This document shows, piece by piece, positions 2,105-64,000 of a DNA stretch of 64,000 bases. Positions within the stretch are counted from its first letter, which is position 1. Every line of letters begins with the position of its first letter. The DNA lies in NCBI GenBank assembly GCA_038087875.1, contig CM075989.1, positions 14,014,001 through 14,078,000 on the forward strand, in the 5' to 3' direction. The notes beneath the pieces were generated by a model, which saw nothing but the letters and a program-made list of their open reading frames with translations, did no database searches and had not been told where the DNA came from. Position numbers and translations under genes: made by a program. Source of the DNA: Malacoraja senta (Eukaryota).

Positions 2105-3845
2105 ATAGATACATAGATACATAGAAAATAGGTGCAGGAGTAGGCCATTTGGCCCTTCGAGCCTGCACCGCCATTCAATATGATCATGGCTGATCATCCA
2201 ACTCAGTATCCCGTACCTGCCTTCTCTCCATACCCCCTGATCCCCTTAGCCACAAGGGCCACATCCAACTCCCTCTTAAATATAGCCAATGAACTGGCCT
2301 CAACTACCCTCTGTGGCAGAGAGTTCCAGAGATTCACCACTCTCTGTGTGAAAAAGTTTTTCCTCATCTCGGTCTTAAAGGATTTCCCCCTTATCCTTAA
2401 GCTGTGACCCCTTGTCCTGGACTTCCCCAACATCGGGAACAATCTTCCTGCATCTAGCCTGTCCAACCCCATAAGAATTTTGTACGTTTCTATAGGATCC
2501 CCTCTCAACCTCCTAAATTCTAGCGAGTATAAGCCAAGTCTATCCAGTCTTTCTTCATATGAAAGTCCTTACATCCCAGGAATCAGTCTGGTGAACCTTC
2601 TCTGCACTCCCTCTATGGCTATAATGTCCTTCCTCAGATTTGGAGACCAAAACTGTACGCAATACTCCAGGTGTGGTCTCACCAAGACCCTGTACAACTG
2701 CAGTAGAACCTCCCTGCTCCTATACTCAAATCCTTTTGCTATGAAAGCTAACATACCATTTGCTTTCTTCACTGCCTGCTGCACCTGCATGCCTACTTTC
2801 AATGACTGGTGTACCATGACACCTAGGTCTCGCTGCATCTCCCCATTTCCTAATCGGCCACCATTTAGATAATAGTCTGCTTTCCTGTTTTTGCCACCAA
2901 AGTGGATAACCTCACATTTATCCACATTATACTGCATCTGCCAAACATTTGCCCACTCACCCAGCCTATCCAAGTCACCTTGCAGTCTCCTAGCATCCTC
3001 CTCACAGCTAACACTGCCCCCCCAGCTTAGTGTCATCCGCAAACTTGGAGATGTTGCCTTCAATTCCCTCATCCAGCTCATTAATATAAATTGTAAATAG
3101 CCTGGGTTCCAGCACTGAGCCTTGCGGTACCCCACTAGTCACTGCGTGCCATTGTGAAAAGGACCCGTTTACTCCTACTCTTTGCTTCCTGTTTGCCAGC
3201 CAGTTCTCTATCCACATCAATACTGAACCCCCAATACCGTGTGCTTTAAGTTTGTACACTAATCTCTTATGTGGTACCTTGTCGAAAGCCTTCTGAAAGT
3301 CCAGATACAACACATCCACTGGTTCTCCCCTATCCACTCTACTAGTTACATCCTCGAAAAATTCTATAAGATTCGTCAGACATGATTTACCTTTCGTAAA
3401 TCCATGCTGAATTTGTCCAATGATTTCACCACTTTCCAAATGTGCTGCTATCCCATCTTTAATAAGTGATTCTAGCAGTTTCCCCACTACCAATGTTAGA
3501 CTAACTGGTCTGTAATTCCCCGTTTTCTCTCCCTCCCTTCTTAAAAAGTGGGGTTACGTTTGCTACCCTCCAATCCTCAGGAACTACTCCAGAATCTAAA
3601 GAGTTTTGAAAAATTATCACTAATGCATCCACTATTTTCTGGAGCTACTTCCTTAAGTACTCTGGGATGCAGCCTATCTGGCCCTGGTGATTTATCGGCC
3701 TTTAATCCATTCAATTTACCCAACACCACTTCCCGACTAACCTGGATTTCACTCAGTTCCTCCATCTCCTTTTAGAACTAATGGCCAGTCAATCTTGGCT
3801 AATTCACGTCTCATACCCTCAAAGTTACCTTTCTTTAAGTTCAGA
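2105..3845 (-). mobile_element. Young CR1-clade LINE, 5'-truncated ORF2 (RT) with frameshifts and an internal deletion
   Basis: ORFs 3008-3493, 2569-3135 and 2203-2508 carry [29 protein letters not shown] and [11 protein letters not shown]. 3' tail is (ATAGATAC)n at ~2105-2124. 3773-3845 encodes the more upstream piece LNLKKGNFEGMRRELAKIDW. Confidence 0.95.
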
Positions 3846-5819: not shown

Positions 5820-6890
5820 TCTATATAACTAAAAGTCTCATCTTGACCACTTCCTGTCTACATTGTTAATTGATTTTAGAAAAAACGCTACCCTATATCG
5901 CTATGTTTTTTGCCATCTTACTCACAGTCCTCCTCCGCTGCAGCAGCCCCAAGGGACTTTTCCGATCGCTGGGAAAAAAAAAGTATGAATGTTTAAAAAT
6001 CTTGAGATCAGCTGATTGGTCCTCTCGCCTGTCGATCACCAATGATAAAGGTAAAGCCCCATCCGGGGGGGGAGGGGGGCAGGAGTATAAAGCCCCAGAT
6101 GCCGGACGTCAGTCAGTCACTCTGGAAGATCGTGAGGGAGAGTCCACAACTGTGATTCTAAGCTGTGAGTCAACTGAACCGTGAGTCTGCAATATACTTG
6201 CAATAAATTATTTGTTAGCCCTAAATGAAAATGCAATGAGTAGTTTGGCCTGCCTTGTGCTTGAAACTGCAATGGAAATGGAAATTAAATGAAAATGCAA
6301 TGAGTTGTTTCGCCTGTCCTATGCTTTTGTTTTGCTTTGCCTTTGCTTTGCTTGACCTCACCTGAAATGAAAGCAAATGGATTGTATTGTTGGCTGGCCC
6401 CTGTGCTTGACTTGACTTGACTTGAAATGGATTGACTTGACTTAAAATGGATTGACTTGACTTGAAATCAATTGACTTGACTTGACTTCACTTGAAAGGG
6501 ATTGACTTGACTTAACTTGACTTGAAATGGATTGACTAGACTTGACTTGACTTGACTTGAAATGGATTGACTTGACTTGACTTGAAATGGATTGACTTGA
6601 CTTGAAATGGATTGACTTGACTTGACTTGTAATGGATTGACTTGACTTGAAATGGAATGACTTGACTTGAAATGGATTGACTTGACTTCAAATGGATTGA
6701 AATGGATTGTTGGCCCTGCACTCACTGTGCTTGACTTGACTTAACCCACAACACCCATGCTAGTGCTCCAGAACCCCCCCCCCCCTCCCACTGGCCACCA
6801 ATATTGGAATTGGTGGAGAGGTGGAATATTGCGTTGGGGGACCAGCCCTCCCGCGTGAACCTGGGACCCAACGGGTTCTACTTAGTCTAG
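5820..6890 (+). mobile_element. Non-autonomous Helitron
   Basis: Starts with TC (5820), ends with CTAG (6887-6890), has a subterminal hairpin GGGACCCAACGGGTTCT (~6863-6879), and sits between A5819 and T6891 with no TSD. The flanks rejoin as CTCCACA/TCACTGTCTATATC. Confidence 0.8.
6405..6705. repeat. Compound microsatellite (TTGAC)n interspersed with GAAATGGA, inside the Helitron
   Basis: Directly visible tandem array. Confidence 0.95.
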
Positions 6891-7055: not shown

Positions 7056-7545
7056 ACAACCTACAAATCTGTACATCTTTGGAGTGTGGGAGGAAACCGA
7101 AGATAGATACATAGATACATAGAAAATAGGTGCAGGAGTAGGCCATTCGGCCCTTCGAGTCTGCACCGCCATTCAATATGATCATGGCTGATCATCCAAC
7201 TCAGTATCCCGTACCTGCCTTCTCTCCATACCCCCTGATCCCCTTAGCCACAAGGGCCACATCTAACTCCCTCTTAAATATAGCCAATGAACTGGCCTCA
7301 ACTACCCTCTGTGGCAGAGAGTTCCAGAGATTCACCACTCTCTGTGTGAAAAAGTTTTTCCTCATCTCGGTCTTAAAGGATTTCCCCCTCTTAAAGGATT
7401 TCCCCCTTAAAGATGTCGGAGAAAACCCACGCGGTCACAGGAGAAACTCAGCACAGACAGCTACCATAGTCAGGATCATACCCGGATCTCTGGCGTGTAA
7501 GCGCTGTAAGGCAGCAACTCTACCACTGTGCGACCGTGCCACCTT
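7056..7545 (-). mobile_element. tRNA-derived (V-SINE/HE1-like) SINE interrupted by a short CR1 3' fragment (~7101-7410)
   Basis: SINE head reads GGCACGGTCGCACAGTGGTAGAGTTGCTGCCTTACAGCG on the minus strand. The CR1 piece is nearly identical to 2105-2400, with a possible AAGAT target duplication. Confidence 0.85.
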
Positions 7546-14852: not shown

Positions 14853-16420
14853 CCAGATAGGCTGCATCCCAGAGTACTTAAGGAAGTAGCTCCAGAAATA
14901 GTGGATGCATTAGTGATAATTTTTCAAAACTCATTAGATTCTGGAGTAGTTCCTGAGGATTGAAGGGTAGCAAATGTAACCCCACTTTTTAAGAAGGGAG
15001 GGAGAGAGAAAACGGGGAATTACAGACCAGTTAGTCTAACATCGGTAGTGGGGAAACTGCTAGAGTCAGTTATTAAAGATGGGATAGCAGCACATTTGGA
15101 AAGTGGTGAAATCATTGGACAAAGTCAGCATGGATTTACGAAAGGTAAATCATGTCTGACGAATCTTATAGAATTTTTCGAGGATGTAACTAGTAGAGTG
15201 GATAGGGGAGAACCAGTGGATGTGTTGTATCTGGACTTTCAGAAGGCTTTCGACAAGGTACCACATAAGAGATTAGGATACAAACTTAAATCACACGGTA
15301 TTGGGGGTTCAGTATTGATGTGGATAGAGAACTGGCTGGCAAACAGGAAGCAAAGAGTAGGAGTAAACGGGTCCTTTTCACAATGGCAGGCAGTGACTAG
15401 TGGGGTACCGCAAGGCTCAGTGCTGGGACCCCAGCTATTTACAATTTATATTAATGACCTGGATGAGGGAATTGAAAGCAACATCTCCAAGTTTGCGGAT
15501 GACACTAAGCTGGGGGGCAGTGTTAGCTGTGAGGAGGATGCTAGGAGACTGCAAGGTGACTTGGATAGGCTGGGTGATTGGGCAAATGTTTGGCAGATGC
15601 AGTATAATGTGGATAAATGTGAGGTTATCCACTTTGGTGGCAAAAACGGGAAGGCAGACTATTATCTAAATGGTGGCCGATTAGGAAATGGGGAGATGCA
15701 GCGAGACCTGGGTGTCATGGTACACCAGTCATTGAAAGTAGGCATGCAGGTGCAGCAGGCAGTGAAGAAAGCGAATGGTATGTTGGCCTTCATAGCAAGA
15801 GGATTTGAGTATAGGAGCAGGGAGGTTCTACTGCAGTTGTACAGGGTCTTGGTGAGACCACACCTGGAGTATTGTGTACAGTTTTGGTCTCCAAATCTGA
15901 GGAAGGACATTATAGCCATAGAGGGAGTGCAGAGAAGGTTCACCAGACTGATTCCTGGGATGTCAGGACTTTCATATGAAGAAAGACTGAATAGACTTGG
16001 CTTATACTCGCTAGAATTTAGGAGATTGAGAGGGGATCTTATAGAAACGTACAAAATTCTTATGGGATTGGACAGGCTAGATGCAGGAAGATTGTTCCCG
16101 ATGTTGGGGAAGTCCAGGACAAGGGGTCACAGCTTAAGGATAAGGGGGAAATCCTTTAAGACCGAGACGAGGAAAAACTTTTTCACACAGAGAGTGGTGA
16201 ATCTCTGGAACTCTCTGCCACAGAGGGTAGTTGAGGCCAGTTCATTGGCTATATTTAAGAGGGAGTTAGATGTGGCCCTTGTGGCTAAGGGGATCAGGGG
16301 GTATGGAGAGAAGGCAGGTACGGGATACTGAGTTGGATGATCAGCCATGATCATATTGAATGGCGGTGCAGGCTCGAAGGGCCGAATGGCCTACTCCTGC
16401 ACCTATTTTCTATGTATCTA
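14853..16420 (+). mobile_element. Young CR1-clade LINE, 5'-truncated, RT domain open from 15048 to 16331
   Basis: 427-aa ORF with canonical CR1 RT motifs; upstream TGA at 14961 replaces the W of PEDWR. Inserted into a Penelope-tail-like element (TGCTGGAGTAACTCA...GGGTCAGGCAGCATCT). Confidence 0.97.
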
Positions 16421-16809
16421 TTTTCTAATGGGTCAGGCAGCATCTGTGGAGAATATGAATAGGCGATGTTTCACAGAATGCTGGAGTAACTCAGCGGGTC
16501 AGGCAGCATCTCTGGAGAACATGGATAGATGACATGTCACAGGGTGCTGGAATAACTCAGTGAGTCAGGCAGCATCTCTGGAGAAAAGGTATAGATTATA
16601 TTTCGGGTCAAGACCCTTCTTCAGTAATATTCATGATGTGACATGCATAGACATTCCTGAATGTTACCCAAACCATCGTGAGCTACTTTGTTACGGTGCT
16701 TGCCCTCTCCTATAACGTATCTGCTGCCTTGGGTGAAGCAGGACAGGACACAAGCTTTGGGACACGGTGTGAAGCTGTTGCCGTCTGTCCCAGCCTGGTA
16801 AAAACCTGG

Positions 16810-18040: not shown

Positions 18041-19875
18041 ATTCCCATCCTGGATCAGTCCAATCAGGGTTGTGTCACCTGCAAACTTGAGAAGCTTGAC
18101 AGAGGTGTCTGTGGAGGTGCAGTCATTGGTGTGGCGAGAGTAGAGGAGAGGGGAGAGTACGCATCTTGCGGTGCTCCTATGCTGAGCGTTTGCGGGTCCG
18201 AGATATGCTTTCCCGTCTCACATGCTGCTTCCTGTCTGTCAGAAAGCTGGTGATCCACCGACAGACGGGTTCAGGCACAGTCAACTCAGAAAGTTCGGAG
18301 CGTAGTAGATAGATAGATAGATATTTATTTGTTGTCATTTGAACCTAAGTTCAAACGAAATTTGGTTTCTGCAGTCATACAAACAAGTAAAAAGAACCAA
18401 GACACAACACAATTTACACAAACATCCATCACAGTGAATCTCCTCCTCACTGTGATGGAAGGCAAAGTCTTATCTCTCCCCTGCACTCCACATTCTCCTC
18501 CCGATGTCAAAGTCAAAGCCCCCGGCGGGCGATTGTAGATATGTCCCGTGGCCATTAAAGCTGCGCCAGGCGATGCAAGGCCACGCTCCGGGTCTTGATG
18601 TTGTAGCCCCCGGTAGCGCCAGCAAGTCCCACGGCCACCAATGCCGCGCCGGGCGATGTCAGACCCCGCTCCAGGTCATCTTCAACCTCGCAACTCAGGC
18701 GGGAGTAGCTGCCGTTGCGGGAGCCCCGAAAAGCGGTCTCCCACCATGGACCCGCGAGCTCCCGATGTTACCGTCCACCAGACCTGCGGCTGAAACCTCC
18801 GAATCTCCGGGGTCGGGTAGCAGCAGCGCGCCACCACAGCTCCTCCTGCTCCGAACTCGGCCAGCTCCACGATGGTGAGTAGTCCGCAGGCTCCGCGACT
18901 GGAGCACCAGGTCGTTCCGGTTGGAGGCCGCTCCACGGTGCTAGGCCCCAACGACAACGGAGACCCGACAGAGAAAGGTCGGGTCTCCCATGCAGGGAAA
19001 AGATTTTAAAGGTTTCCCCACCCCCTGCCCCCCCACACATACCCAGTCAAAAAAAAAAAAAAACTCTGTACGAAACTCAAACGAAAAAAATAAAATAAAA
19101 AAGACAGACGGACTGCAGAGGCCGCTGCAACATGAGTCGCGCCGCCCACCCACGACTGGTAGCTCTGGCACAATGGTGTTGAATGCAGAGCTAAAATCAA
19201 CAAACGAAATCCTCGCTTAGGTCCCATGGTGGTCTAGGTGCTGGAGGATGAAGTGCAGGCCCAGATTGACTACGTCATCCACAGATCTATTGGCCCAATA
19301 TGCAAAATGCAGAGGGTCCAGCAGAGGGATTGTGATATTTTTCAGCTTGGCCAGCACAAGCCTTTCAACAGTCTTCATGACTACAGAGGTCAGTGTGACA
19401 AGCCTGTAGTCATTAAGACCAGTAATCCTTACCTTTTTGGGTACAGGGACAATAGTGGAGACTTTGAAGCAGGCAGCGACAGTACATCTTTGCAGGGACT
19501 GGTTAAAAATGAGTAATTGGGTGTGAAGTGTTGGTTGGGGTGGGAAAGGGTCCACTCTTTTCATACTGGAGTCTTGCCTTAAGTAGGAGTGAAGTGGTGA
19601 ATGGGAAGGAGAGGGTGCAGGGTCCATTCTTTGCAGACTGGGGTCTGGCTGTGTTTGTTGGGGAGGGTTACGTTTCTGATTTTCAAACATGCCGTAAAAC
19701 TCATTCAGATTGTTCGTCAGCTGACGATTGTCCTAAGAGCGGGGGGCTTTCCTCTTATAGCTGGTGATTTCTTGCATGCCCTTTAAACTGAAGAAGAGTC
19801 ACTAGCTGAGAACTTGCTCCTCAACTTCTCAGAGTACCTTTCCTTGGCAGCTCTGATTCCTCTTCTCAGCTCTTT
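18040..19875 (-). mobile_element. Rex1/Babar-like LINE RT fragments, split by the 18306-19146 insertion
   Basis: ORF 19217-19690 has [30 protein letters not shown]; 18064-18258 has LSIGAPQ. The pieces flank the GC-rich element. Confidence 0.8.
18306..19146 (-). mobile_element. Non-autonomous GC-rich retroelement with a Rex-like 3' tail
   Basis: Minus-strand tail ATTTCGTTTGAACTTAGGTTCAAATGACAACAAATAAATA followed by (TCTA)n. Body similar to 28774-29455. Head GGCGGCGCGACTCATGTTGCAGCGGCCTCTGCAGTCCG. Confidence 0.75.
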
Positions 19876-28773: not shown

Positions 28774-29455
28774 AATACAATACAATACAATACAATACAA
28801 TTTATTTGTAATTTGGACTCCGTTGAGGTCCAAACGAAATGTCGTTTCTGCAGCCATACATTACAAAACGAAGAAGACCCGAGACACAACACAATTTACA
28901 CATACATCCATCACAGCGCTGTGATGGAAGGCAAAAAAACGTATCTCTCCACTGCACTCCCCCCCCCGATGTCAGAGTCAAAGTCAAAGTCAAAAGCCCC
29001 CGGCGGGCGATGGTGATTGTCCGGCGGCCATTAAGCCACGCCGGGTGATGCAAGGTCGCGCACCGGGTCTTGGTGTTAGAGCCCCGGCGTGCGCTCGCAA
29101 AGTCCCGCGGCCATTCCAAGCCGCGCGGGGCGGTGATGTAAAGCCCCGCTCCAGGTGCTCTTCAACCCCGCAGCTCGGCCGGGAGAAGTCGCCGCTGCGG
29201 AAGCCCCGAAAAGCGGTCTCCCACCAGGGACCCGCGGGCTTCCGGTGTTGCCGTCCGCCAGACCCGCGGTTGTAGCCTCCGAATCTCCGGGGGTCGGGTC
29301 GCAGCAGCGCTCCACCACAGCTCCACCCGCTCCGGACTCGGCCAGCCCCGCGACGGTGAGTAGTCCGCAGCTCCGCAACTGGAGCCCCAGGTCGTTCCTG
29401 CTGGAGGCCGCTCCACGTTGCCCAGCCCCAACGACAACGGAGACCCGACAAAGAA
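28774..29455 (-). mobile_element. 5'-truncated copy related to the 18306-19146 GC-rich non-autonomous retroelement
   Basis: (AATAC)n tail and high similarity to 18330-18975. Inserted in a CR1 3' tail (GCAGGCAAAT...TAGATTAGT). Confidence 0.8.
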
Positions 29456-30589
29456 AATTAGATTAGTATGGATGCGCAAAACTGTCACCATGGAGGGGTG
29501 GGCTGAAAGTCCTGTTTCTGTGTGGTGTCACTCTATGATAGCGTTCTGCTTATTAAAAGAGATGGGATATTTGCAGGAAAATTTGGTTGAGATTGGCTAT
29601 GATCTTTAGGAAAGGCAGAGCAGGTTTGAAGGATGAATGTCCAACTGCTCTTATTTTTTAAATATTGTTATAGATTGGAATTACAGCTAAGTGATTGTTC
29701 ATTAAAAGCCTGATCGCCTAAATAACTGTGGTGATTTAAGCTCTGGAGTTCACTGGAGAATTATCGTTTTCGTCCACAGAAAATTATTTGTCCACAGAAA
29801 GTTTATTTTGGAGCTGTAGGCAACTACATTGAATCTTGTGTTTGTTGACCTGCCTTATGATAGTGTAGTCAACTACATTGTGGTTTGGAAAAATAAATGT
29901 GAAATATGTCTGGTGACTTGTGGCAAAACACAATGATGTACAGTGATTTTATAAAATACTAATCAGAACTTCTGGTTAAGGATGCCGCTGAGCACACAGG
30001 CACTATAATGGTGGATAGTGGTCTTACTTAATTATTTTGTCTTCATTTGATTTTGAATCAATGAAATGAAAAGAGTTGTGGATGTAGCCCATGTGGCAGG
30101 GGGCAGACGCTGGGTCTACAATGACTACATCGACATACTCGTGGTAGGATGAACTCGCGTGAAAAGGTTTATTTATAGTGAAGAGTTAAGGGGACAATAG
30201 TGACAAGAAAATAATGCCAATTTGATTAGTATGGGTGTCAGGGGTTATGGGAGGAGAATAGGGTTAGGAGGGAGAGATGGATAAGCCATGATTGAAGTAG
30301 ACTTGATGGGCCAAATGGCCTAATTCTGCTTCTCCCCCTTATTTGGGATGATCTGCTAGACTTGTTCTATTCACTTACTGGTGACCCCAAATCTTTTCAC
30401 TTTCTGTAAGTCAACAGGTCAGAAGTTTGTCATTTGTAATAGATTTCATGCAAGTGTACTGCACCACAGACATGCTATATGTTATAGGTATGAGTTCTTC
30501 ACAATGAATCAAAGGCAGCTGAAGTTTTTACTTTCTTTCCACTAAAGGTGAAATCAAAAGCATTTATATTTTATCTGTACATGGTGCCG

Positions 30590-31130
30590 GCGTTTTCAGG
30601 CAGGCGCTGTCCATGGTGCTGGTCTTCCACTCCACCTGACATGTCTGCCCTTAATGGGATCAGAGCAACATTTAGGGAGGAGGCATTGTTACACCCATTT
30701 CATCACATAGTCCAGACTCCCCACTATTGAGTTCATCCACACTTCTTACTGCCTTGGGAAAGCAGCCGACATAATCAAAGATCTTTCCTGATCGCAGTCA
30801 TTCCTCCTGCTTCTTGTTCCCGTTGGGCAGAAGCTTGAAAGCGTGCATCACCAGACTTAGAAACAGCTGTTCCCCTCTCTTAACAGGCTTCTGAACGGTC
30901 CTTCCATAAGCTGGGGAGCAGTCTGATTCTCCTCTACTTCTTTGCGAAGTGGTCTTTGTTTCTGGAACTGGTGTGAAAACTATATTCTGCACTCTGTATA
31001 TTTCTGTTCATTCTACCTATGGTACTTGAGTTTGGCTTGATTGCATTCATGTTCAGTATCTGATTTGATTGGAAGGTGTGTAAAACAATGCTTTTCACTG
31101 AACCTCTGTAGATGTGACCATTATGAACCA
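30590..31130 (+). mobile_element. Old Rex1/Babar-like 3' fragment
   Basis: GCAGCCGACATAATCAAAGA...ACCAGACTTAGAAACAGC... and tail TTTTCACTG...GTGACCATTAT. Confidence 0.55.
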
Positions 31131-44104: not shown

Positions 44105-45149
44105 GTAAGTGAACATGTTTGTGTTTCATTCGTTATGAAATAACTTTTATGCTGAGTGCTTACACAAAATGCACAAGAGGGCAACAAGGGGGCAAGGTAT
44201 GCTGGGTGGGAGAATTCAATACCATTGCAGTGAGTGACAGCAGATGCAATGGTTTCAAGTGCTTTAATGCATAGTGACAATGTTCTAATCCACAATATTG
44301 CCAAATTGGGCTTGCAGCAAGTGTTGAGGAGGCTAATATGGGTAAAGTTTACTAAATGTTATCCTCACCTGTCAAAGATTAATGAAAGCATTGGGAACAA
44401 TGTTAACTGCACAATCCTTGTCCCAAGATCTATCAAAATGTCCACTGTTCTAATAACAATGTAACTGTATTAAATGGGATAAATGTGGAACCCGAACATG
44501 CTAATGATACCTTTCTCCAGTCTACAGCTTTATTTCTTGCAGTTACCTTCATTGTTTTGTTTTGTATCATTATTCAAAGCTTCTTGATTACCTGTGATTA
44601 TCTGGTGTGCTACATTGCTGAGAACTGGATTCTGTACTCAGTATCTTTCCATTTGCTCTACTTATTACATTTGAGTTTGACTAGATTGTATTTATGTATA
44701 ATATCTGATCTGAATGAATAGCATGCTAAACAAAACTTTTAACTGTACTTCGATACACATGACAATAATAAACCTATACCTAAGCCAAATCTCTTGGTAA
44801 GGCTGATGTTCCTCAGTAACATAGATACATTCAACTACTAATTGTGCAGTAGTGCATTTTCCACATTTTAATACTATGCATCATGGATTTATTTAATTGG
44901 GTGTGACTTTATCTAACCTAGGTAGTTGCTGATACTATTTGTTACAGATTAATTGTATTTTTAAATGGTTATAGAAATTAAGTTCTACGCAATGACTAAC
45001 TTCCTCCATGTTGGAGTGAAAATCAATCGGTTCAAGAAATTAATTCCAGGTGAAGCAGTCTAAACTACTTGTTCGATTTCCATTTTCTTGGGGGCAACAT
45101 TACCCATAAATCATCTGAAAAACACGTATTTAAACATCGGTTGAATAAT

Positions 45150-54052: not shown

Positions 54053-55289
54053 TGTAGATTGATGATGCATGTGAATCAATCACACTTAGCCAGCATCACT
54101 AACTCCACCCCATTATAACATTTATACTAACGCCCATTCCCAGCACCGTTAGTTGAAGCAGCCAGGATGAACTGACAACACCTCGTTTTGTAATGCTGCC
54201 AAGTTAATGTGCTGATTAAAGATGTGTGTAAATCTTATACAGTTTGAAGTGATTTACATGGTGTCAGAAGTGGGATTAATGCACAGGTGGATTTCATCCT
54301 TTCCCTTCTTGACTGTGGCAATCATGGTTGAGACCCAGTCGGTGGGGTCGCTGACTGCTTCAATTATGCCTTTGGAGACCATGTCCTTCAGCATAGAGTG
54401 AACCCTGTCAGTCATGGCAAATGACAATCTGTGCGGGTTTCAGACTACGGGTGTCACATCGGGGTCAATAATAATCTTGTAGGACACAGGCAACTTGCCT
54501 AGGTTGTTGAAGCCCGCCACTATCCAGCAACGTCTCCAAGAGAAGCACGACATCCAGAAACGGTCATACGACAGTTCCAGCAGACCACTCCAGCCTCTAC
54601 TGCCGGGCCAGGTCATCCGTCTACGAACTCCAACTGGACATTCTCGTCTGGGCGTTGTTGTACGCCCGACTGATGAGCCGCGATCGTACCTTGTGGACTG
54701 TGAGGGAGCGGTTTACCGGAGAAGTCGACAACACCTGCTTGCTGTGAAGGAGCCCCGACCACCACCTGCTGATCCCTATGCTCCGCCGCTCCAGTTCCAG
54801 CCGCCTTCCGCAATGTCTCCCGCCCGTCCACGCATGCCTGGCACCCCCCACGTCCCTCTGTCTCCACTAACCACGGGGTTACACCCACCGCATGTTTCCC
54901 CCCTCGGTCACCACAATCCTCTCCCGTGCGATTTTCACCTTCAGCCTCTCCGCCTAATCCTTCAGTTGAGGGAGGGGATGGTTGGGTCCGCACGCGCTCG
55001 GGCCGTGTTAGTAGACCACCAGACAGGTATGGCAAGTATGTTTAATACACTTCCTTTCCACATTTAATCTTTAGGGGGAAGGATGTAGATTGATGATGCA
55101 TGTGAATCAATCACACTTAGCCAGCATCACTAACTCCACCCCATTATAACATTTATACTAACGCCCATTCCCAGCACCGTTAGTTGAAGCAGCTAGGATG
55201 AACTGACAACACCTCGTTTTGTAATGCTGCCAAGTTAATGTGCTGATTAAAGATGTGTGTAAATCTTATACAGTTTGAAGTGATTTACA
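54053..55289 (+). mobile_element. Miniature gypsy (Mag-like) LTR retrotransposon: two 206-bp LTRs, PBS-Leu, inverted RT fragment, integrase 3' end, PPT, 5-bp TSD
   Basis: LTRs 54053-54258 and 55084-55289 (TGTA...TACA; one mismatch seen by eye). PBS TGGTGTCAGAAGTGGGAT 54259-54276, complementary to the tRNA-Leu(CAA) 3' end as recalled. PPT AGGGGGAAGGA 55073-55083. TSD GATAC at 54048-54052 and 55290-55294. ORF 54495-55067 has L.PGQVIR...PRSYLV...YRRSRQHL. Confidence 0.95.
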
Positions 55290-56325: not shown

Positions 56326-56375
56326 AGGCTGGGATCCCCTGAATTAAGGTATTAATTTTTGTTATTTCGTTAAAT

Positions 56376-57380
56376 ACCCCAGCTATTTACAATATATATT
56401 AATGATTTGGACGAGGGAATTGAATGCAACATCTCCAAGTTTGCGGATGACACAAAGCTGGGGGGCAGTGTTAGCTGTGAGGAGGATGCTAGGAGGCTGC
56501 AAGGTGACTTGGATAGGCTGGGTGAGTGGGAAAATGCATGGCAGATGCAGTATAATGTGGTTAAATGTGAGGTTATCCACTTTGGTGGCAAAAACAGGAA
56601 AGTAGACTATTATCTGAATGGTGGCCGATTAGGAAAAGGGGAGATGCAACGAGACCTGGGTGTCATGGTACACCAGTCATTGAAAGTAGGCATGCAGGTG
56701 CATCAGGCAGTGAAGAAAGCGAATGGTATGTTAGCATTCATAGCAAAAGGATTTGAGTATAGGAGCAGGGAGGTTCTACTGCAGTTGTACAGGGTCTTGG
56801 TGAGACCACACCTGGAGTATTGCGTACAGTTTTTGTCTCCTAATCTGAGGAAAGACATTCTTGCCATAGAGGGAGTACAGAGAAGGTTCACCAGACTGAT
56901 TCCTGGGATGTCAGGACTTTCATATGAAGAAAGACTGGATAGACTTGGCTTGTACTCGCTAGAATTTAGAAGATTGAGGGGGGATCTTATAGAAACTTAC
57001 AAAATTCTTAAGGGGTTGGACAGGCTAGATGCAGGAAGATTGTTCCCGATGTTGGGGAAGTCCAGAACAAGGGGTCACAGTTTAAGGATAAGGGGGAAAT
57101 CTTTTAGGACTGAGATGAGAAAAACATTTTTCACACAGAGAGTGGTGAATCTCTGGAATTCTCTGCCACAGAAGGTAGTTGAGGCCAGTTCATTGGCTAT
57201 ATTTAAGAGGGAATTAGATGTGGCCCTTGTGGCTAAAGGTATCAGGGGGTATGGAGAGAAGGCAGGTACAGGATACTGAGTTGGATGATCAGCCATGATC
57301 ATATTGAATGGCGGTGCAGGCTCGAAGGGCCGAATGGCCTACTCCTGCACCTATTTTCTATGTTTCTATGTTTCTATGTT
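56376..57380 (+). mobile_element. Young CR1-clade LINE 3' portion (second subfamily)
   Basis: ORF 56407-57279 RT C-terminal half. Tail is (TTTCTATG)n, versus the ATAGATAC-type tail of the other young copies. Confidence 0.95.
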
Positions 57381-57574: not shown

Positions 57575-58137
57575 TGAAAGAGCTAATAGTCAAATCTAAT
57601 AGTCAAATCTAATAGTCAAATCTAAAATTGAGTCGTTCTTCTACAAAAGCATGGTCCAGTAAAACAAAAGAATGGCTCGGTGCCAAGTCTGAATGACATT
57701 GTAAATTATATGGAACACAATATGGAGGACAGGTTGTCTTTTCAATAAAGACGTTAAGATGGCAGCCTGCGTAATAACATGCGCTTTTCAATGCCATAAA
57801 GAAGCCAAGATTGAAAAAAATAGCTGACGCTCCAGAGATAAGTAATAACTTGTTATTGGATGAGCTTGATTTGGACCCAGCTTTCATATATTCTGAAAGG
57901 CTGCAGAATCTTTCAGTCATGCCATATTCAGACTTGGTAGGAGTGTTTTACTGATAAGAAAAATGTATAATTGTGCGAACTGCCCTTTGTTCTGTGAGTG
58001 GGAGCCCGAGAAGCACTGAGCAACATTTGTGCTCATTGTAGATCGCCACTCCCGTCTGACAAATCAATTAAAGATTGCTATGGTTTTACCTTTAACAGTT
58101 TTTGTTGCTATCTGCTTTTAAGAAATGAACTTTGACA
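57575..58137 (+). repeat. 5' LTR
   Basis: TG...CA (ends AACTTTGACA). TATA-like TGTATAA ~57964 and poly(A)-signal-like ATTAAA ~58067. The 13-bp unit CTAATAGTCAAAT is tripled relative to the 3' LTR. About 20 substitutions in ~400 aligned bases versus the 3' LTR, counted by eye. Confidence 0.9.
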
Positions 58138-58139
58138 TT

Positions 58140-58159
58140 TGGCTGTAGTCGGCAGGGAT
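58140..58159 (+). promoter_or_regulatory. Primer-binding site, tRNA-Ser-like
   Basis: TGGCTGTAGTCGGCAGGGAT, 2 nt after the LTR end. It matches the complement of the tRNA-Ser 3' end (TGGCGTAGTCGGCAGGAT, recalled) with two single-base insertions. Confidence 0.8.
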
Positions 58160-58718
58160 CTAGCTGGGACCAGCAACAGATGACTGAGTAAGAGGGTGCA
58201 GTTGACCGGGATCTGAAAGGGAGAAAACTGAGCTCTAGTCGGACCCTTTGAGTCTGGCCTCCCGAAGAAGCTCCCGGTAAAAAAAAACCTACGGTCCCTC
58301 AGTCTGTGGTTGGCCAGGTTCCAGACAAGATCCTTAGAAGCAGACAGCAAGGGTAAGACCACTTGTATAAAGGATTGGCTTGTGTATTGGAAATGAATAA
58401 AGGATTGGGCACGGCAGACTAAAGAGGTTTTGTCACAATTAAAGGATTGGACACGGGAGACTTCAAAGTTTTTGTCACTAAGTGTATTGGAAAGACAAGA
58501 TGTGTTGAAAAGAAGTGTATTGAAAAGACAATGTGTCTTGAGGAGACAGTGTTTTGACAAGACTTGTGAATTTGCTACCAGGGAGAGTAGCCAGATTGGG
58601 CTTTATAGACTGCAAAGGTTTGTTACAAATAAAGGATTGGGCTTAACAGGCTGAAAAAGTTTGTTACAATTTGTGTACTAAGTTGTGTACTAAGAAGTGA
58701 TTTGGAGATTCGATAAAC

Positions 58719-58990
58719 ATGGAAATAATTTGGATAAGAGTGACGGAAAGACAGCTGTACAACACATGTGTTATTTGAATCCTCAGAACAACAAGGATTA
58801 TAGAATATTGAATTATAAATTGACCAACGTTTGAGTAATGTGTCTTGACCAGTGGGAGGCATATGAAATGTGGAGACTATTGAAGGCAGAGAGAGAGAGA
58901 GAGAAAGAGGCAGAAAATAAGTGGGTGGGGACGCGAGATAGTAGTTAGATGGATTATGCTTTTTAAAGAGGTATTGAATTGTGGAATAAA
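58719..58990 (+). pseudogene. gag: gag matrix remnant
   Basis: Restoring one G after the ATG gives MGNNLDKSDGKTAVQHMCYLNPQNNKDYRILNYKL; after a further frameshift, RLSNVS*PVGGI*NVETIE. That is an MG start plus a WPxxG-like class-I matrix motif with W codons mutated to TGA. Confidence 0.55.
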
Positions 58991-60240
58991 TACAGAACTA
59001 TTAAAAGAATGGAAAGTACTTCAGACGGAATGCCAGTGGGCAGAGGAATAGGAGATGGGCTAAGGCAGAGAAAGAAAGCGCTGATAAGAGTTCGCAGAAC
59101 AAAGCCGGTACCAATAAGTCTTCTCGAGGTCCACTCGAGACCCTATGTCTGGCAATGGCGACCCTGTCTATAGAAGAAGGGGGAGGTGGCCAATCACAAT
59201 CTGGATCACTGTCCAATCACAGCTCAGACCACTCCCATTTTGAACATTAGCGCGCCCACCATTACATTAAACTACTATCTTTGTTCATTTTAAATTCTCA
59301 CTCCAACAAAAAAGACGACTTTTGCAAACCTCCCAGTCCTAGTTCACAAATTCTGCAAATTGGTTCCCATAGAAACAAAGATTTTTTTAAACCGAACGAC
59401 TTTTGTCAGATAAGGGAGGAGAATGTAAAATTAACACGGAGAGACGTCTCTAATGTTTTGCACGATTTTTTTGGAAACGAGGGGGTTGCGCCACTTTGGC
59501 TAATTCTCAGATAAATTTGTGTAATTGATGTATATTTTGCCTGTTTTTTGTATTACTTTTCTTTCAATGTTCGAAGGGTAGTATGTGTTCAAAACCAAAA
59601 CCAAAAGCTCTCTAAAAAGGTATTTTAAAAAGCTCTTTCAAGTTGTCACCCATCCAAGTTCTGGCTCTTATTTGATTACTTGAATCTCCATTTTCTTTCG
59701 AGTTGTCACTCATCCAAGTTCTGTTTCTTATCTAACTCAAGTGCTCAGTGTTCTTTTCAAGGCATTGCTACCAAGATACTAGCAGCTTCATTTTCCTGTG
59801 TTCAGGATTTCACTGTCTTTTTAATTTCTCCCAAAACCTATCGGGATACTTGACATCCAGGGCCAGGCTATATTCATCTATATACCCCTTTTGATGAAAT
59901 GGTCCATGTCAGATGAAATGGGATGTCATTGAATGAGTTTGCAATCGATGAAAATTAATTGTTTATTCTTTGTTTTCTCTTAACTTTAATTTTTTTTCCC
60001 TATTTCATACCTTTTGAATTGAGTTCAAATAGAGACCTGAATTCCACGATGGCCATGTAGCATTCAGGTAGATGTGTTAGATGAGATTGGAGATGCCTTT
60101 ATCTCAGAACAAAATCTGTTAATTTGAAATTGTAAATTTGGGGAGATAGATTGGAACAATTGGGAATATTTTTAAATTGTTTTTTTAATAATTATCTATT
60201 TTTTAAAGGGTCTGCCTTATAGGTAGTTAATTAGTGATGT

Positions 60241-60555
60241 CACATCCCCCACAACCAGTAGAATTCTGGATTAATGGAGGGAATGAATAGGACACTAAAG
60301 AGCGTGGAAGTTAGTTATGACCTACAGGCCCACAGCAATGAATTAATTACATACACACAGCAATTAAGCACAACCTTGTCAGTCTTGCATTCACAGGGGT
60401 TGAAAACGCAGAAGCCACTGCCAGTTGAACACAGACACCGTCCATACTACTAGGATCGGACAAAATTTGGACTGTGTTGGAGGGGACTGTACCAGGTGTG
60501 ACTATGACACCAACCACCGTGAAGATTGAAGATTACCCCAGTTGGAGACATCTGA
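60241..60555 (+). pseudogene. pol: Retroviral integrase remnants (core fragment and C-terminal domain)
   Basis: HIP...SGLMEGMNRTLK (60241-60300) resembles PQSSGQVERMNRTLK. Then ELITYTQQLSTTLSVLHSQ and, with frameshifts, W.G.YQV..MTPTTVKIEDYPSWRH, resembling gammaretroviral WKGPYTVLLTTPTALKV...WIH. Confidence 0.8.
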
Positions 60556-60570
60556 TAAGATTGACTGTAA

Positions 60571-60681
60571 ATGGAGGAGAACCAAGAAAGGACAATGGGG
60601 CTATTGACCCTACTTTTTATCCTGAGGTTGGCCCAGATGGGCTGGGCTTCGGGAAACAACTGCTGCACCAAGACGTCCTGA
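60571..60681 (+). pseudogene. env: Putative env signal peptide remnant
   Basis: MEENQERTMGLLTLLFILRLAQMGWASGNNCCTKTS*, immediately after the integrase end. Hydrophobic core with a G-W-A cleavage-like site. The frame stops a few codons into the cargo. Confidence 0.6.
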
Positions 60682-60722
60682 ATAAGGCTGACAACTGTCC
60701 TTATGTTTATAACACTGACCAA
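60672..60722 (+). pseudogene. THBS2: Captured thrombospondin type-3 repeat fragment
   Basis: [17 protein letters not shown] resembles THBS2 [17 protein letters not shown] as recalled. Confidence 0.7.
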
Positions 60723-60780
60723 GATGGATCCATTACCACAGGTTCTTGAAGTAACCAGAAAAAGGTGGCAGCTTATCCCG

Positions 60781-61058
60781 GAGCTACAGATCGAGCTGAA
60801 ACAGATGAGAAATGTGCTCACCAATGCCCAGTCTGAAAATGACCATCTCGCTTCCATCACACAGCAGCTGAAGGAGAGCAATCAGGTTGTGGAGTTGAAA
60901 AGCCTTGATTTTGGAGTGCAATTCAGTTACAGAACTGGATTGAGGTAAATCCCAGCCGGGATCAAAGTGAGGAGCTGAGTTGGGATGGATCAGACAGCCA
61001 GTTGGCATTGATGGAGAAGGAAGAAGAATGCTGGTTTCACACACTGATGGACAACTTG
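60781..61058 (+). pseudogene. Captured, scrambled fragments of a CRACR2A/CRACR2B/RAB44-family (EF-hand coiled-coil Rab) mRNA
   Basis: [32 protein letters not shown] and [18 protein letters not shown] resemble CRACR2A segments (recalled: TKAENTKL, LTRIISQLQEA, GEDEEAQFRMLMDRL). Confidence 0.6.
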
Positions 61059-61084
61059 GAAGAAAGAACGTCTCGATTTGTGAA

Positions 61085-61412
61085 AAGAAACTACATTTGT
61101 GATGAATGTGGACAGACTTTCAAACAGCGGAAACAACTGTCAGTTCACCAACTGCGCCATACTGGAGCAAAACCTTTGCAGTGTGAAGTTTGTGGTTTCT
61201 AGTGCAGGCAAAGAGCATCCTTGAAATACCATATGACCAAGCACAAGCCAGAAGCTGAACTTGAATTTGCTTGTGACCAATGTGAGAAGCGATTTGAGAA
61301 GGCTCACAATTTGAATGTTCATATGTCCATGGTTCATCCCTCGACCCAGAGTACAGATAAAAACAAACCTATTGAAATTGAATCATCAGCTAAGTTTGGA
61401 AACATTAATTAA
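61085..61412 (+). pseudogene. ZNF276: Captured ZNF276 C2H2 fingers 3-5 and C-terminus
   Basis: [84 protein letters not shown], nearly identical to ZNF276 as recalled. Premature TAG at 61200-61202; no introns. Confidence 0.92.
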
Positions 61413-61479
61413 ACAGGAACCCAGTTAATAGTTATTCAACAGCTAAATAATGAGTCTAAAGGATCTTGCACCCCTTTTC

Positions 61480-61735
61480 AATGTTAGCAAGACACAAAGG
61501 ATTAACATGAATAAATGCAATCAAGCCAGGCTCACCTATAATAGGTAGAGCAAAGGAAAGGTTATTGTGGAGAACATAGTTCTGAGCATTATAGCACACC
61601 AGTTCCAGAGACAAAGTCCAATGTCTGCAATGGGGTAGAGGTGCATCAGGCAGAATACTAGCAATTGGAAGGACTGTTCAGAACACTGATAACAGAGGGG
61701 AAGAAGCTAATTTGTGTTGTAGTGAGGCAGGGTTC
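61480..61735 (-). mobile_element. Antisense Rex/L2-like 3' fragment inside the cargo
   Basis: Reverse-complement similarity to 30850-31100 (CTTGATTGCATT.ATGTT, TTTGT.TCTGGAACTGGTGTG, TTCTGAAC.GTCC). Confidence 0.6.
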
Positions 61736-61742
61736 AAGTTTG

Positions 61743-62521
61743 CCACAGTTACATCCTGGACATGCATTCAAATCGCAGTGTTGTTTTGAATGAGGGACAG
61801 TGCCCATCCAGTATAAATAAGGACTCAATGGAGGAAGTTCTGGATGGTTCAATAACCCTTTCACCTCGGAATGGAACAGTGACTGAAAATGGTGAGGGTG
61901 ATAATGTTGCGAAGCATCAACCTGCCCCAGTGTTAGCAGACTTTCAGCCTTGTACATATAGTGGAACCACTTCGGCGGATGTGGACAACTGGGAATCCCC
62001 ATTGAAGGATATGTTCTTGCGCTCAGATCCTGAATATACAGAGTGCTCTTGGGAAAAAGTTCAGGTACAAGATGCAACTCAACCATTAAATGTGAAAAAA
62101 AAACAGTTAACTGCAATGAAGCATCTTGTTCTATAAGAAATGATGTTGTGGATGGATTGGAGTCCAGTGATCTTTCTGAAAGGTATTTATCAAGTGAAGA
62201 TAACAGAGAAACAAAAGTTAAGAATGGCTCTTCAGATGAGTCTTTTCAACCATATTGGAAGAAGAAGAGTAAGTTACCAGTTAAACGTGGCCGGAAACCA
62301 AAGTCAAACTTGGAAAGGGAAGATTTCCCCACCATGTATCGATGTCAGTATAAGGGTTGCTGTGCTGTTTACAGAGGAGTTGATGAACTTAAGAAACATA
62401 TAAAAGAGCAGCATGAAGAGGTACGTGAAAGACCTTGCCCCCACCCAGGAGGTAACAAGGTGTTTCTGATTGATCGCTACCAGCAGCACCATGTAAAGCT
62501 GATCCATACAGAAGAAAGAAC
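61743..62521 (+). pseudogene. ZNF276: Captured ZNF276 central region and fingers 1-2
   Basis: HSYILDM..., SSDLSE..LSSEDN...SSDESFQPY, EREDFPTMYRCQYKGCCAVYRGVDELKKHIKEQHEEVRERPCPHPGGNKVFLIDRYQQHHVKLIHTEER. Probable frameshift at the A-run ~62095-62103, second-finger C to G, intronless. Confidence 0.9.
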
Positions 62522-62687
62522 ATCTTTACAGATCAGGAGGAAGTGCAAAGCCTTTGGTCACAACTTCGGGAAGACAAACCACATTTGATCAACAATCTTG
62601 AAGCATTTTGAGCTCTATCGTATGACCAAGGGTCTAGAGAGAGAGAAGCTGAACATTTTGAAACAGATGGAGCTCTTGAAAGAGATT
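62522..62687 (+). pseudogene. Captured CRACR2A/CRACR2B/RAB44-family fragments
   Basis: [29 protein letters not shown] (too short for the ORF track), then [25 protein letters not shown]. These resemble recalled CRACR2A [23 protein letters not shown] and [25 protein letters not shown]. Confidence 0.75.
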
Positions 62688-63375
62688 ATGCATAACCCTA
62701 TCCAGGAAGACAATGACTCTGACCTGGTGGGTAATCAGTGTGATGACAATCAGGACATTGATGAGGATGGCAATGATGGCGTTTCTGATGAGAAGGACAA
62801 TTGCCGTTTTGTTCCCAACCCTGACCAGATCGATGCCGATGGTGACAGCAGAGGAGACAACTGCAAAGACGACTTTGACAACAACATCCCAGATATCTAT
62901 GACATGTGCCCCGAGAACAGTGCCATCAGTGAGGCTGACCTGAGGAAGTTCCAAAGGGGACGATGCAGATTGTTCCTAAGTGGGTAGTGCACAACAAGGG
63001 CAGGTAGTGCACAACAATGTTACCTTCTACGTCAACAGAGACCACAATCTATGCTGGCTTTGTCTTTGGCTTGCAGTCCAGCAGCCGCTTCTACGTGGTG
63101 ATGTGGAAGCAGGCCATCCAAACCTACTGGGAGGAGAAGCTGTCCAAACCCATGGATACGCTAGCGTCTAGACCAAGGTGATGAACCCCACCACAGGATA
63201 AGAGGGGGGAGCACCTCACCTGTGCAACGATCTACGAAGAGACTGGCAACACCCTCGGACAGGTGCGAACTTTATGGCACAACCCCAATATCGGCTGAAA
63301 GGATTACACCGCCTACAGGTGGCACCTGATCCATTGACCCTAAACAAGCTTCATCAGGATGGTTGTCAATGGTTG
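62688..63375 (+). pseudogene. THBS2: Captured thrombospondin (subgroup A, THBS2-like) type-3 repeats and C-terminal lectin domain, internally deleted
   Basis: [87 protein letters not shown], then [55 protein letters not shown] with stops and frameshifts. Intronless. Confidence 0.9.
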
Positions 63376-63399
63376 TCAATGAAGAGAGTGAGAACTGGT

Positions 63400-63557
63400 T
63401 GCCAGTTGGTTTGATGGACTTTGGGGTAGTATTGAACTGGTAGCCATACCTTTTGTTTGATGGACTTTGGGGTACTGTGATATATTATGGCTCTATCATT
63501 CTGCTAATCATTGCTCTAATACTTGCGACCATTGTGTATACCTACCGAGGACTGTGA
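63400..63557 (+). pseudogene. env: env transmembrane-anchor remnant
   Basis: ASWFDGLWG, and after a 20-bp duplication (GTTTGATGGACTTTGGGGTA twice) FDGLWGTVIYYGSIILLIIALILATIVYTYRGL*. This is a Trp-containing membrane-proximal stretch plus a hydrophobic anchor directly before the PPT. Confidence 0.7.
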
Positions 63558-63574
63558 ATGTTATCACATTTGAT

Positions 63575-63587
63575 AAAAAGCAGGGAA
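63575..63587 (+). promoter_or_regulatory. Polypurine tract
   Basis: AAAAAGCAGGGAA immediately before TGAAAGA of the 3' LTR (MLV-like junction). Confidence 0.85.
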
Positions 63588-64000
63588 TGAAAGAGCTAAT
63601 AGTCAAATCTAAATTGGAGTCATTCTTCTACAAAAGCATGGCCTAGAAAAACAAAAGAATGACATTGTAAATTATATGGAACACAATATGGAGGACAGAT
63701 TGTCTTTTCAATAAAGACATTAAGATGGTAGCCTGCGTAATAACATGTGCTTCTTTTCAAGGCCATAAAGATGCCAAGATTGAAAAAAATAGCTGATGCT
63801 CCAGAGATAAGTAATAACTTGTTATTGGATGAGCTTGATTTGGACCCAGCTTTCTTATATTCTGAAAGGCTGCAGAATATTTCAGTCATGCCATATTCAG
63901 ACTTGGTAGGAGTGTTATACTGATAAGAAAAATGTATAATTATGCTAATTGTCCTTTGTTCTGTGAGTGGGAGCCCGAGAAGCACTGAGCAACGTTTGTG
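63588..64000 (+). repeat. 3' LTR (runs off the window end)
   Basis: Direct repeat of 57575-58030 with a 21-bp deletion and a 3-bp insertion. Confidence 0.92.

Follow-up and report, generated by a model that had tools for sequence, protein, structure and literature searches.

The closest described systems to the locus presented here are those in which LTR elements capture host mRNA. In the accessible text of Tan et al. 2016, LTR-mediated retroposition captures partial mRNAs at a median microsimilarity of 6 bp, and the mouse four-gene 'Super' retrocopy lies in MERVL; multi-gene LTR capture at ~6-bp microsimilarity is already established (PMC5131818). The class of circRNA-derived pseudogenes presented by Dong et al. 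2016 is defined by back-splice exon-exon junctions, and non-colinear junctions, according to the same source, could alternatively arise when a linear RNA with closely placed 5' and 3' ends is reverse-transcribed across them (PMC4897178). It is standard in retroviruses that RNA breaks force copy choice and that RNase H cleaves behind the polymerase (PMC3187697), and tertiary host templates are a known source of patch insertions (PMC4997597). Captures usually show two unrelated junctions, and little record of the fate of the RNA in between.

Here we describe a 64,000-nt stretch of the genome of the skate Malacoraja senta (the window) in which an LTR element carries nested pieces of four host genes, a cargo that keeps a record of its mechanism that is unusually informative. 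In the open literature searched, a scope outside which the classical retroviral transduction work lies, we found no account of this skate family, nor any LTR element that holds a permuted capture together with its two reciprocal junctions.

The LTR element and its nested cargo

Interspersed repeats are abundant across the window, and the element at 57575–64000 is a defective, non-autonomous LTR retroelement, with all of its features on the plus strand. The 5' LTR (57575–58137) starts with TGAAAG and ends with CA, and the 3' LTR (63588–64000) has the same TGAAAG start but is cut by the window end, with its own 3' end outside. The two are identical in 389 of 410 aligned columns, with 12 transitions and 9 transversions (p 5.1%, K2P 5.3%). 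A PBS-like site with TGG (58140–58158), which we take to resemble tRNA-Ser, lies two bases past the end of the 5' LTR, and a PPT-like purine-rich run (63575–63587) directly precedes the 3' LTR. Between them are a degenerate and weak integrase-core-like remnant (60232–60312), for which PDB 1bi4_B is the sole match (E 1.5) when 60202–60651 is translated with X at stops, and an env-TM-like hydrophobic remnant (63381–63554) recognized by eye, which has no retroviral family match in Pfam and no informative database match. Apart from this integrase match, searches for retroviral proteins in the element against Pfam, PDB, representatives (chance matches) and the Atlas were uninformative. ERV status is plausible, with the internal coding remnants too decayed to classify.

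Short tandem or near-tandem duplications with 10–46 nt spacing occur inside the element at 57584–57624, 62983–63017, 63359–63379 and 63406–63474, in keeping with a slippage-prone copying history. At 60583–60620 there is a match to a contig of run X18 that then diverges on both flanks, and which is perhaps from a related element without the four-gene cargo. Elsewhere in the window, a direct repeat of 206 nt, its two copies identical and spaced 1031 nt apart (54053–55289), surrounds a 194-aa frame (54483–55067) that by eye resembles a Gypsy-type integrase tail, and this is possibly a very young miniature LTR element. LINE-like RT fragments are found on both strands (56374–57380, 2105–3637, 7100–7389 and 14896–16421), 91–99% alike in their matched parts and with a weak Pfam RVT_1 match; there is also a degenerate tandem array of ~10-nt period (6326–6770) and a GC-rich dispersed repeat pair (18652–18976 and 29132–29456).

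The cargo was mapped by tblastn with ZNF276, CRACR2A-like and thrombospondin proteins together with Pfam, and by comparison with contigs from four of 23 listed runs (X16, X17, X18 and X1; all Logan contigs, 82% likeness, matches listed only). The captured genes are nested, with THBS2-like sequence enclosing CRACR2A-like sequence, which in turn encloses both BICD and ZNF276. All pieces are in the sense orientation of the element and are colinear with the proteins and with host-like contigs, and intron-sized inserts are absent. As judged from these alignments, the cargo is made of intronless partial mRNAs that replace element sequence inside the LTR element.

From left to right, the cargo begins with a THBS2-like 5' piece (60672–60722; aa ~810–826 of P0126), followed by aa 450–457 of a CRACR2A-like protein (60727–60750; six of eight residues identical to P0121), a piece of BICD (60750–60902; Pfam BicD, E 6.8e-11), and CRACR2A-like aa 460–471 (60913–60951; 10 of 12 residues by tblastn). 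These two short CRACR2A-like pieces are from a downstream part of the gene and are out of order; the assignment of aa 450–471 is based on 16 of 20 residues across the two adjoining pieces, the longer of which alone has E 0.2. The BICD piece within them is colinear with an internal deletion, differs from X18 record 21 at six positions over 60780–60902, is flanked by X17 loose ends at 60753 and 60902, and has no PDB match. CRACR2A-like aa 110–~150 follow (60948–61070; tblastn 78% over 37 aa, E 2e-12), and then the back half of ZNF276 (61084–61473), identified by tblastn, X17 record 17 and X16 record 10, with aa 518–631, fingers 3–5, the stop codon and the start of the 3' UTR; in the window copy it has one premature stop and one frameshift.

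A fragment of a high-copy interspersed repeat (61511–61708) separates the two parts of ZNF276, with loose ends at 61708 and a summed depth of 250,000–371,000, compared to 3,000–24,000 elsewhere (X1); two further copies are in the window (30870–31050 and 44602–44695). The front part of ZNF276 (61704–62520) contains aa 106–120 deletion-joined to aa 244–518, with fingers 1–2 and with 14 aa absent at 62283. CRACR2A-like aa 149–179, deletion-joined to aa 328–~351, come next (62515–62684; tblastn and contigs, with 0 matches in both PDB and Pfam), and the cargo ends with a THBS2-like 3' piece (62685–63369; aa 843–1130 of P0124), which has several internal deletions and is also covered by X17 record 18 and X18 record 26. 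The cargo looks decayed and is probably functionless.

The gene identities given in the preliminary description hold. For a 140-aa piece of ZNF276 (62100–62519) the 17 best matches are all chondrichthyan, with skates first at 81–83%, and a 50-aa CRACR2A-like piece (60909–61058) matches two proteins among five candidates, the EFCAB4B-like Rhinoraja protein P0121 (E 3e-11) and the Logan protein P0122, which is itself a left-junction chimera. The four-gene nest was absent from that description, as was the permutation of the CRACR2A-like gene, in which aa 450–471 precede aa 110–351 (P0121 numbering) and the outer ends are ~98 aa apart (351 vs 450). On alignment, therefore, two of the cargo genes, ZNF276 and the CRACR2A-like gene, are circularly permuted, and two of the four captures, THBS2-like and BICD, are colinear. 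A THBS2-like permutation was considered on the basis of GKQ at ~60653, residues that would take up the protein just past the end of the 3' piece, and was not adopted, as only these three residues match P0124 aa 1133–35 and aa 988–993 fits equally well; permutation of BICD was ruled out by the colinear loose ends.

Junctions, parents and family copies

The parental order of ZNF276 is seen in X17 record 17 (922 nt), which runs through window positions 62026–62284, 40 extra letters, 62283–62514, and then 61084–61473, passing from 62514 to 61084 with zero letters between (record positions 394|393) and differing from the window at 37 of 881 letters. It is a host-like ZNF276 contig, since it keeps the 14-aa segment and two letters at 61385 that are both absent from the window. 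For the CRACR2A-like gene, an X16 contig passes from 61059 to 62515 with four letters between, giving LGAKN, which fits the LGAKNVF of P0121; THBS2-like sequence is in its normal order (60721 to 62686) in three of the four runs (X16, X17 and X18). The two halves of ZNF276 are thus adjacent in the parent, as are those of the CRACR2A-like gene, just as had been proposed for the source mRNAs. The host-like ZNF276 contigs end at 61473, short of the repeat fragment.

The preliminary description reported an identical 11-nt microhomology at the two ZNF276 junctions. The word, GAAGAAAGAAC, is indeed at 61059–61069 and 62511–62521, with no third site in the window and with the match extendable to 14/15 nt, but it is present in neither parent; the natural word that the parents share is six nucleotides, AAAGAA (61063–68, 61084–89 and 62515–20), which occurs a single time in each retained parent piece. 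Part of the 11-mer identity is likely a later change in the window copy, because at its left start the Logan proteins P0122 and P0123 have Gly, like the host, where the window has Glu. Exact 11-mer repeats are also common in the 2.7-kb cargo, with six observed (two tandem, four dispersed) and 1.7 expected, and 80% of 300 cargo resamples have at least one; such a repeat by itself is at chance level here, and the low chance expectation for GAAGAAAGAAC holds for a word picked after the fact. The signal is instead the common reopening point of both parents, for which the chance is roughly estimated at 1e-3.

Only the right junction is a clean crossover, within AAAGAA (62515–62520). The left junction is a patchwork, in which CRACR2A-like sequence minus one letter is followed by the shared word, 15 letters, the word again, and then ZNF276. 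The segment at 61063–61083 is a degenerate copy of 61084–61102, a garbled re-copy of the start of the ZNF276 piece of ~19 nt, with 16 aligned positions matching, the final eight of them exactly, and with ATTTGTGA repeated 19 nt apart. Related copies differ here, with another letter at 61071 in 3030 of 3130 depth units (X1), and P0122 and P0123 also differ in their left-junction residues.

The insert is flanked on both sides by 8–11 nt of duplicated CRACR2A-like target, and it has no poly(A). Its right end falls inside codon 519 and includes no mRNA 3' end, which separates it from L1-type processed pseudogenes. The loop-closing junction (~61702–08), as read from protein, is repeat-to-coding with a shared word of 5–7 nt. 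Overlaps at the junctions are only a few letters; the microsimilarity at the ZNF276/CRACR2A-like switch points is 6 nt from contigs, and the values for the other junctions are derived from proteins only.

Fourteen runs (DNA or of unstated kind), representing seven organisms and nine studies, contain 35–41% of the sampled words, a share that can come partly from host exons and the repeat. X16 record 9 and X1 record 3 span the left ZNF276 junction, which P0122 and P0123 also encode; X16 record 11 spans the right one, and the CRACR2A-THBS junction is found in X16 record 12 and in the Leucoraja models P0134 and P0138. With these chimeric junctions recurring in other runs, and with this share of words held by seven organisms, the element is a shared multi-species family that is multi-copy and structurally variable. 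Both reciprocal junctions are present in one element, as the preliminary description had it; each is bridged by contigs, their linkage comes from the window, and no contig among the matches listed spans the two. The right-junction pattern has 0 loci in metagenome and viral contigs. Related contigs retain the 14-aa ZNF276 segment and P0138 retains a THBS segment, both missing from the window copy; since copies differ by such deletions, the cargo was eroded during spread. One X1 contig (depth 179.5) joins 61070 to 62523 in register, and could represent a copy that lacks ZNF276, the product of an excision, or a host exon.

Some of these copies have coding potential or gene annotations. P0122 and P0123 (window 61011–61409) have an open 133-aa frame with CRACR2A-like residues fused to ZNF276 fingers 3–5, and the window copy of this frame contains a stop. 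The Leucoraja erinacea models P0134 and P0138 are labelled 'thrombospondin-2-like', begin with CRACR2A-like residues and share the THBS deletion of the window; these are likely element copies annotated as genes.

Routes to a permuted insert

A shared reopening point limits the mechanism to a single lap around a molecule of RNA or DNA, with a rare double event as the other option. Such a lap yields a permuted insert that opens at a word common to it and its target. With partly deleted variants in a family that spans several species, the choice of mechanism is testable. We tentatively favor a single lap by the element's reverse transcriptase around one co-packaged linear ZNF276 mRNA, a reading to which we give slightly less than an even chance, and we infer the enzyme, the single molecule, and the following order of steps.

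Minus-strand synthesis would have read right to left across the cargo, with the enzyme leaving CRACR2A-like sequence at AAAGAA for the same word in the ZNF276 mRNA (the right junction, 62515–20). Copying would have continued toward the ZNF276 5' end until aa ~106, and RNase H would meanwhile have cut the RNA already copied, leaving a 3' ZNF276 fragment beginning at the landing site. A switch onto the 3' UTR of this remaining fragment at a short shared word (~61702–08) would carry copying back to the landing site, where the enzyme would reach the end of the template, stutter (the ~19-nt re-copy) and go back to element RNA at its point of departure. This return would be forced, as RNase H has ended the template at the landing site, and no second virus genome would be needed for both parents to reopen at a single point. 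The CRACR2A-like capture would be earlier, likely by the same route, with its outer junction later eroded by deletion.

In favor of a lap around one mRNA are the contiguity of both parents at the same word (chance roughly 1e-3), the position of the re-copy at what would be the final junction of minus-strand synthesis, where we read it as the mark of a stalled return, the second permuted capture inside the same element, and the sense orientation of all four cargo genes with no intron-sized inserts; in the captures of THBS and BICD, target sequence is replaced and poly(A) is lacking, as in ordinary LTR template switches. On the other side, only one junction pair is demonstrably reciprocal, the outer CRACR2A-like ends are ~98 aa apart, two of the four captures are colinear, the linkage of the two ZNF276 junctions comes from the window, the closing junction crosses a repeat fragment while host-like contigs tie the ZNF276 3' UTR only to 61473, and the 8–11 nt of duplicated target and the A-rich word fit target-primed insertion too. 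A return of reverse transcriptase to the 3' fragment of the same mRNA was not found described in the literature searched.

The preliminary description was correct in that a single template switch is insufficient, with at least three being needed, and besides repeated switches it proposed recombination between sibling genomes, taken here as two element genomes that carried one chimeric junction apiece. Such recombination is possible in a family that is multi-copy and structurally variable, and with a shared word that occurs once per retained parent piece and is reusable, but it is not required; it calls for a third join on top of two rare switches that occurred independently, in opposite directions, at one and the same 6-nt word, where one pass around one molecule needs fewer independent events. 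A full element with a single junction, which the contigs are too short to reveal, was not seen, and we regard sibling recombination as improbable. A lap around DNA could also be invoked, if a circular ZNF276 cDNA, with its 3' UTR end-joined to aa ~106, was integrated by one microhomology crossover at AAAGAA. A single crossover into a circle yields exactly the observed order, and the short insert at 61063–61083 resembles the templated short insertions typical of microhomology-mediated end joining; it is nonetheless unlikely, as six nucleotides are a poor substrate for a reciprocal DNA crossover, a separate circular cDNA is required, and the second permuted capture and the all-sense cargo are left without a reason.

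The duplicated target (8–11 nt) would be a target-site duplication if a LINE reverse transcriptase had inserted ZNF276 by TPRT into an element copy residing in the genome, with internal priming at the A-rich word, a jump to the 3' UTR and a stop at its own first hybrid. LINE-like RT fragments are present in the window (56374–57276), and the in-register X1 contig (61070 to 62523, depth 179.5) is as an empty site would be, although every model predicts a copy with an empty site, and this one may be an excision product or a host exon; the absence of poly(A), the right end in mid-codon within coding sequence, and the deletion of target sequence by the other three captures make this route rather improbable. 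The non-colinear order would also follow from one round of copying on a circular ZNF276 RNA made by back-splicing, and LTR sequence is enriched in the flanks of mouse circRFWD2 pseudogenes (PMC4897178). We consider this route quite improbable, given that stop codon and 3' UTR sequence belong to the back half (X17 record 17), that the visible junctions look joined by microhomology, and that the closing junction is repeat-to-coding with a 5–7 nt shared word and no recognizable exon end, although later deletion could have erased a splice junction. A chance repeat or assembly error, suggested by how common exact 11-mer repeats are in the cargo, is extremely improbable, with the left junction recurring in X16 record 9, X1 record 3, P0122 and P0123, and the right in X16 record 11.

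If the single lap around an mRNA is correct for ZNF276, LTR reverse transcriptases may have a recurrent 'one-lap' capture mode, used at least twice by this skate family (ZNF276 and CRACR2A-like), although we hold this broader proposal to be somewhat doubtful. The question bears on the origin of circularly permuted gene copies and on the reading of non-colinear pseudogenes; if the mode were general, genes could become circularly permuted and domains reordered in this way, and no circRNA would have to be invoked for some of the 'circRNA-derived' pseudogenes that lie in LTR elements.

Comparison with known captures

The skate element is like the products of LTR-mediated retroposition, as described in the accessible text, in that mRNA pieces replace internal element sequence with short junction microsimilarity, and in the occasional de novo inserts, the several parental genes, and the non-autonomous onward copying; it is unlike them in having a permuted piece with both reciprocal junctions and in its nested captures (PMC5131818). 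The layout of the 'Super' retrocopy may be similar to that of the skate cargo, and the main text of PMC5131818 has 0 occurrences of 'circular' or 'rearrange'. The crocodilian CrocERV29 KIT-ligand and CrocERV31 nectin3 captures similarly have host mRNA in the pol-env region and are multi-copy in several species, but they are described as single near-complete ORFs under purifying selection, whereas the skate cargo is fragmentary, multi-gene and scrambled, and broken in the window copy (PMC4299795).

Retroviral non-homologous recombination shares with the skate element fortuitous-microhomology switches to co-packaged host RNA, forced copy choice, and junction insertions and duplications, with the events in the portions of these sources available being patches and deletions rather than a full permuted lap returning to its exit point (PMC4997597, PMC3187697). 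The circRNA-derived pseudogenes are alike in the non-colinear arrangement of one gene's parts and in their LTR association, and the ZNF276 capture differs from them in that its closing junction has no recognizable splice, the 3' UTR is included, and the lap is complete and opened within another captured gene (PMC4897178).
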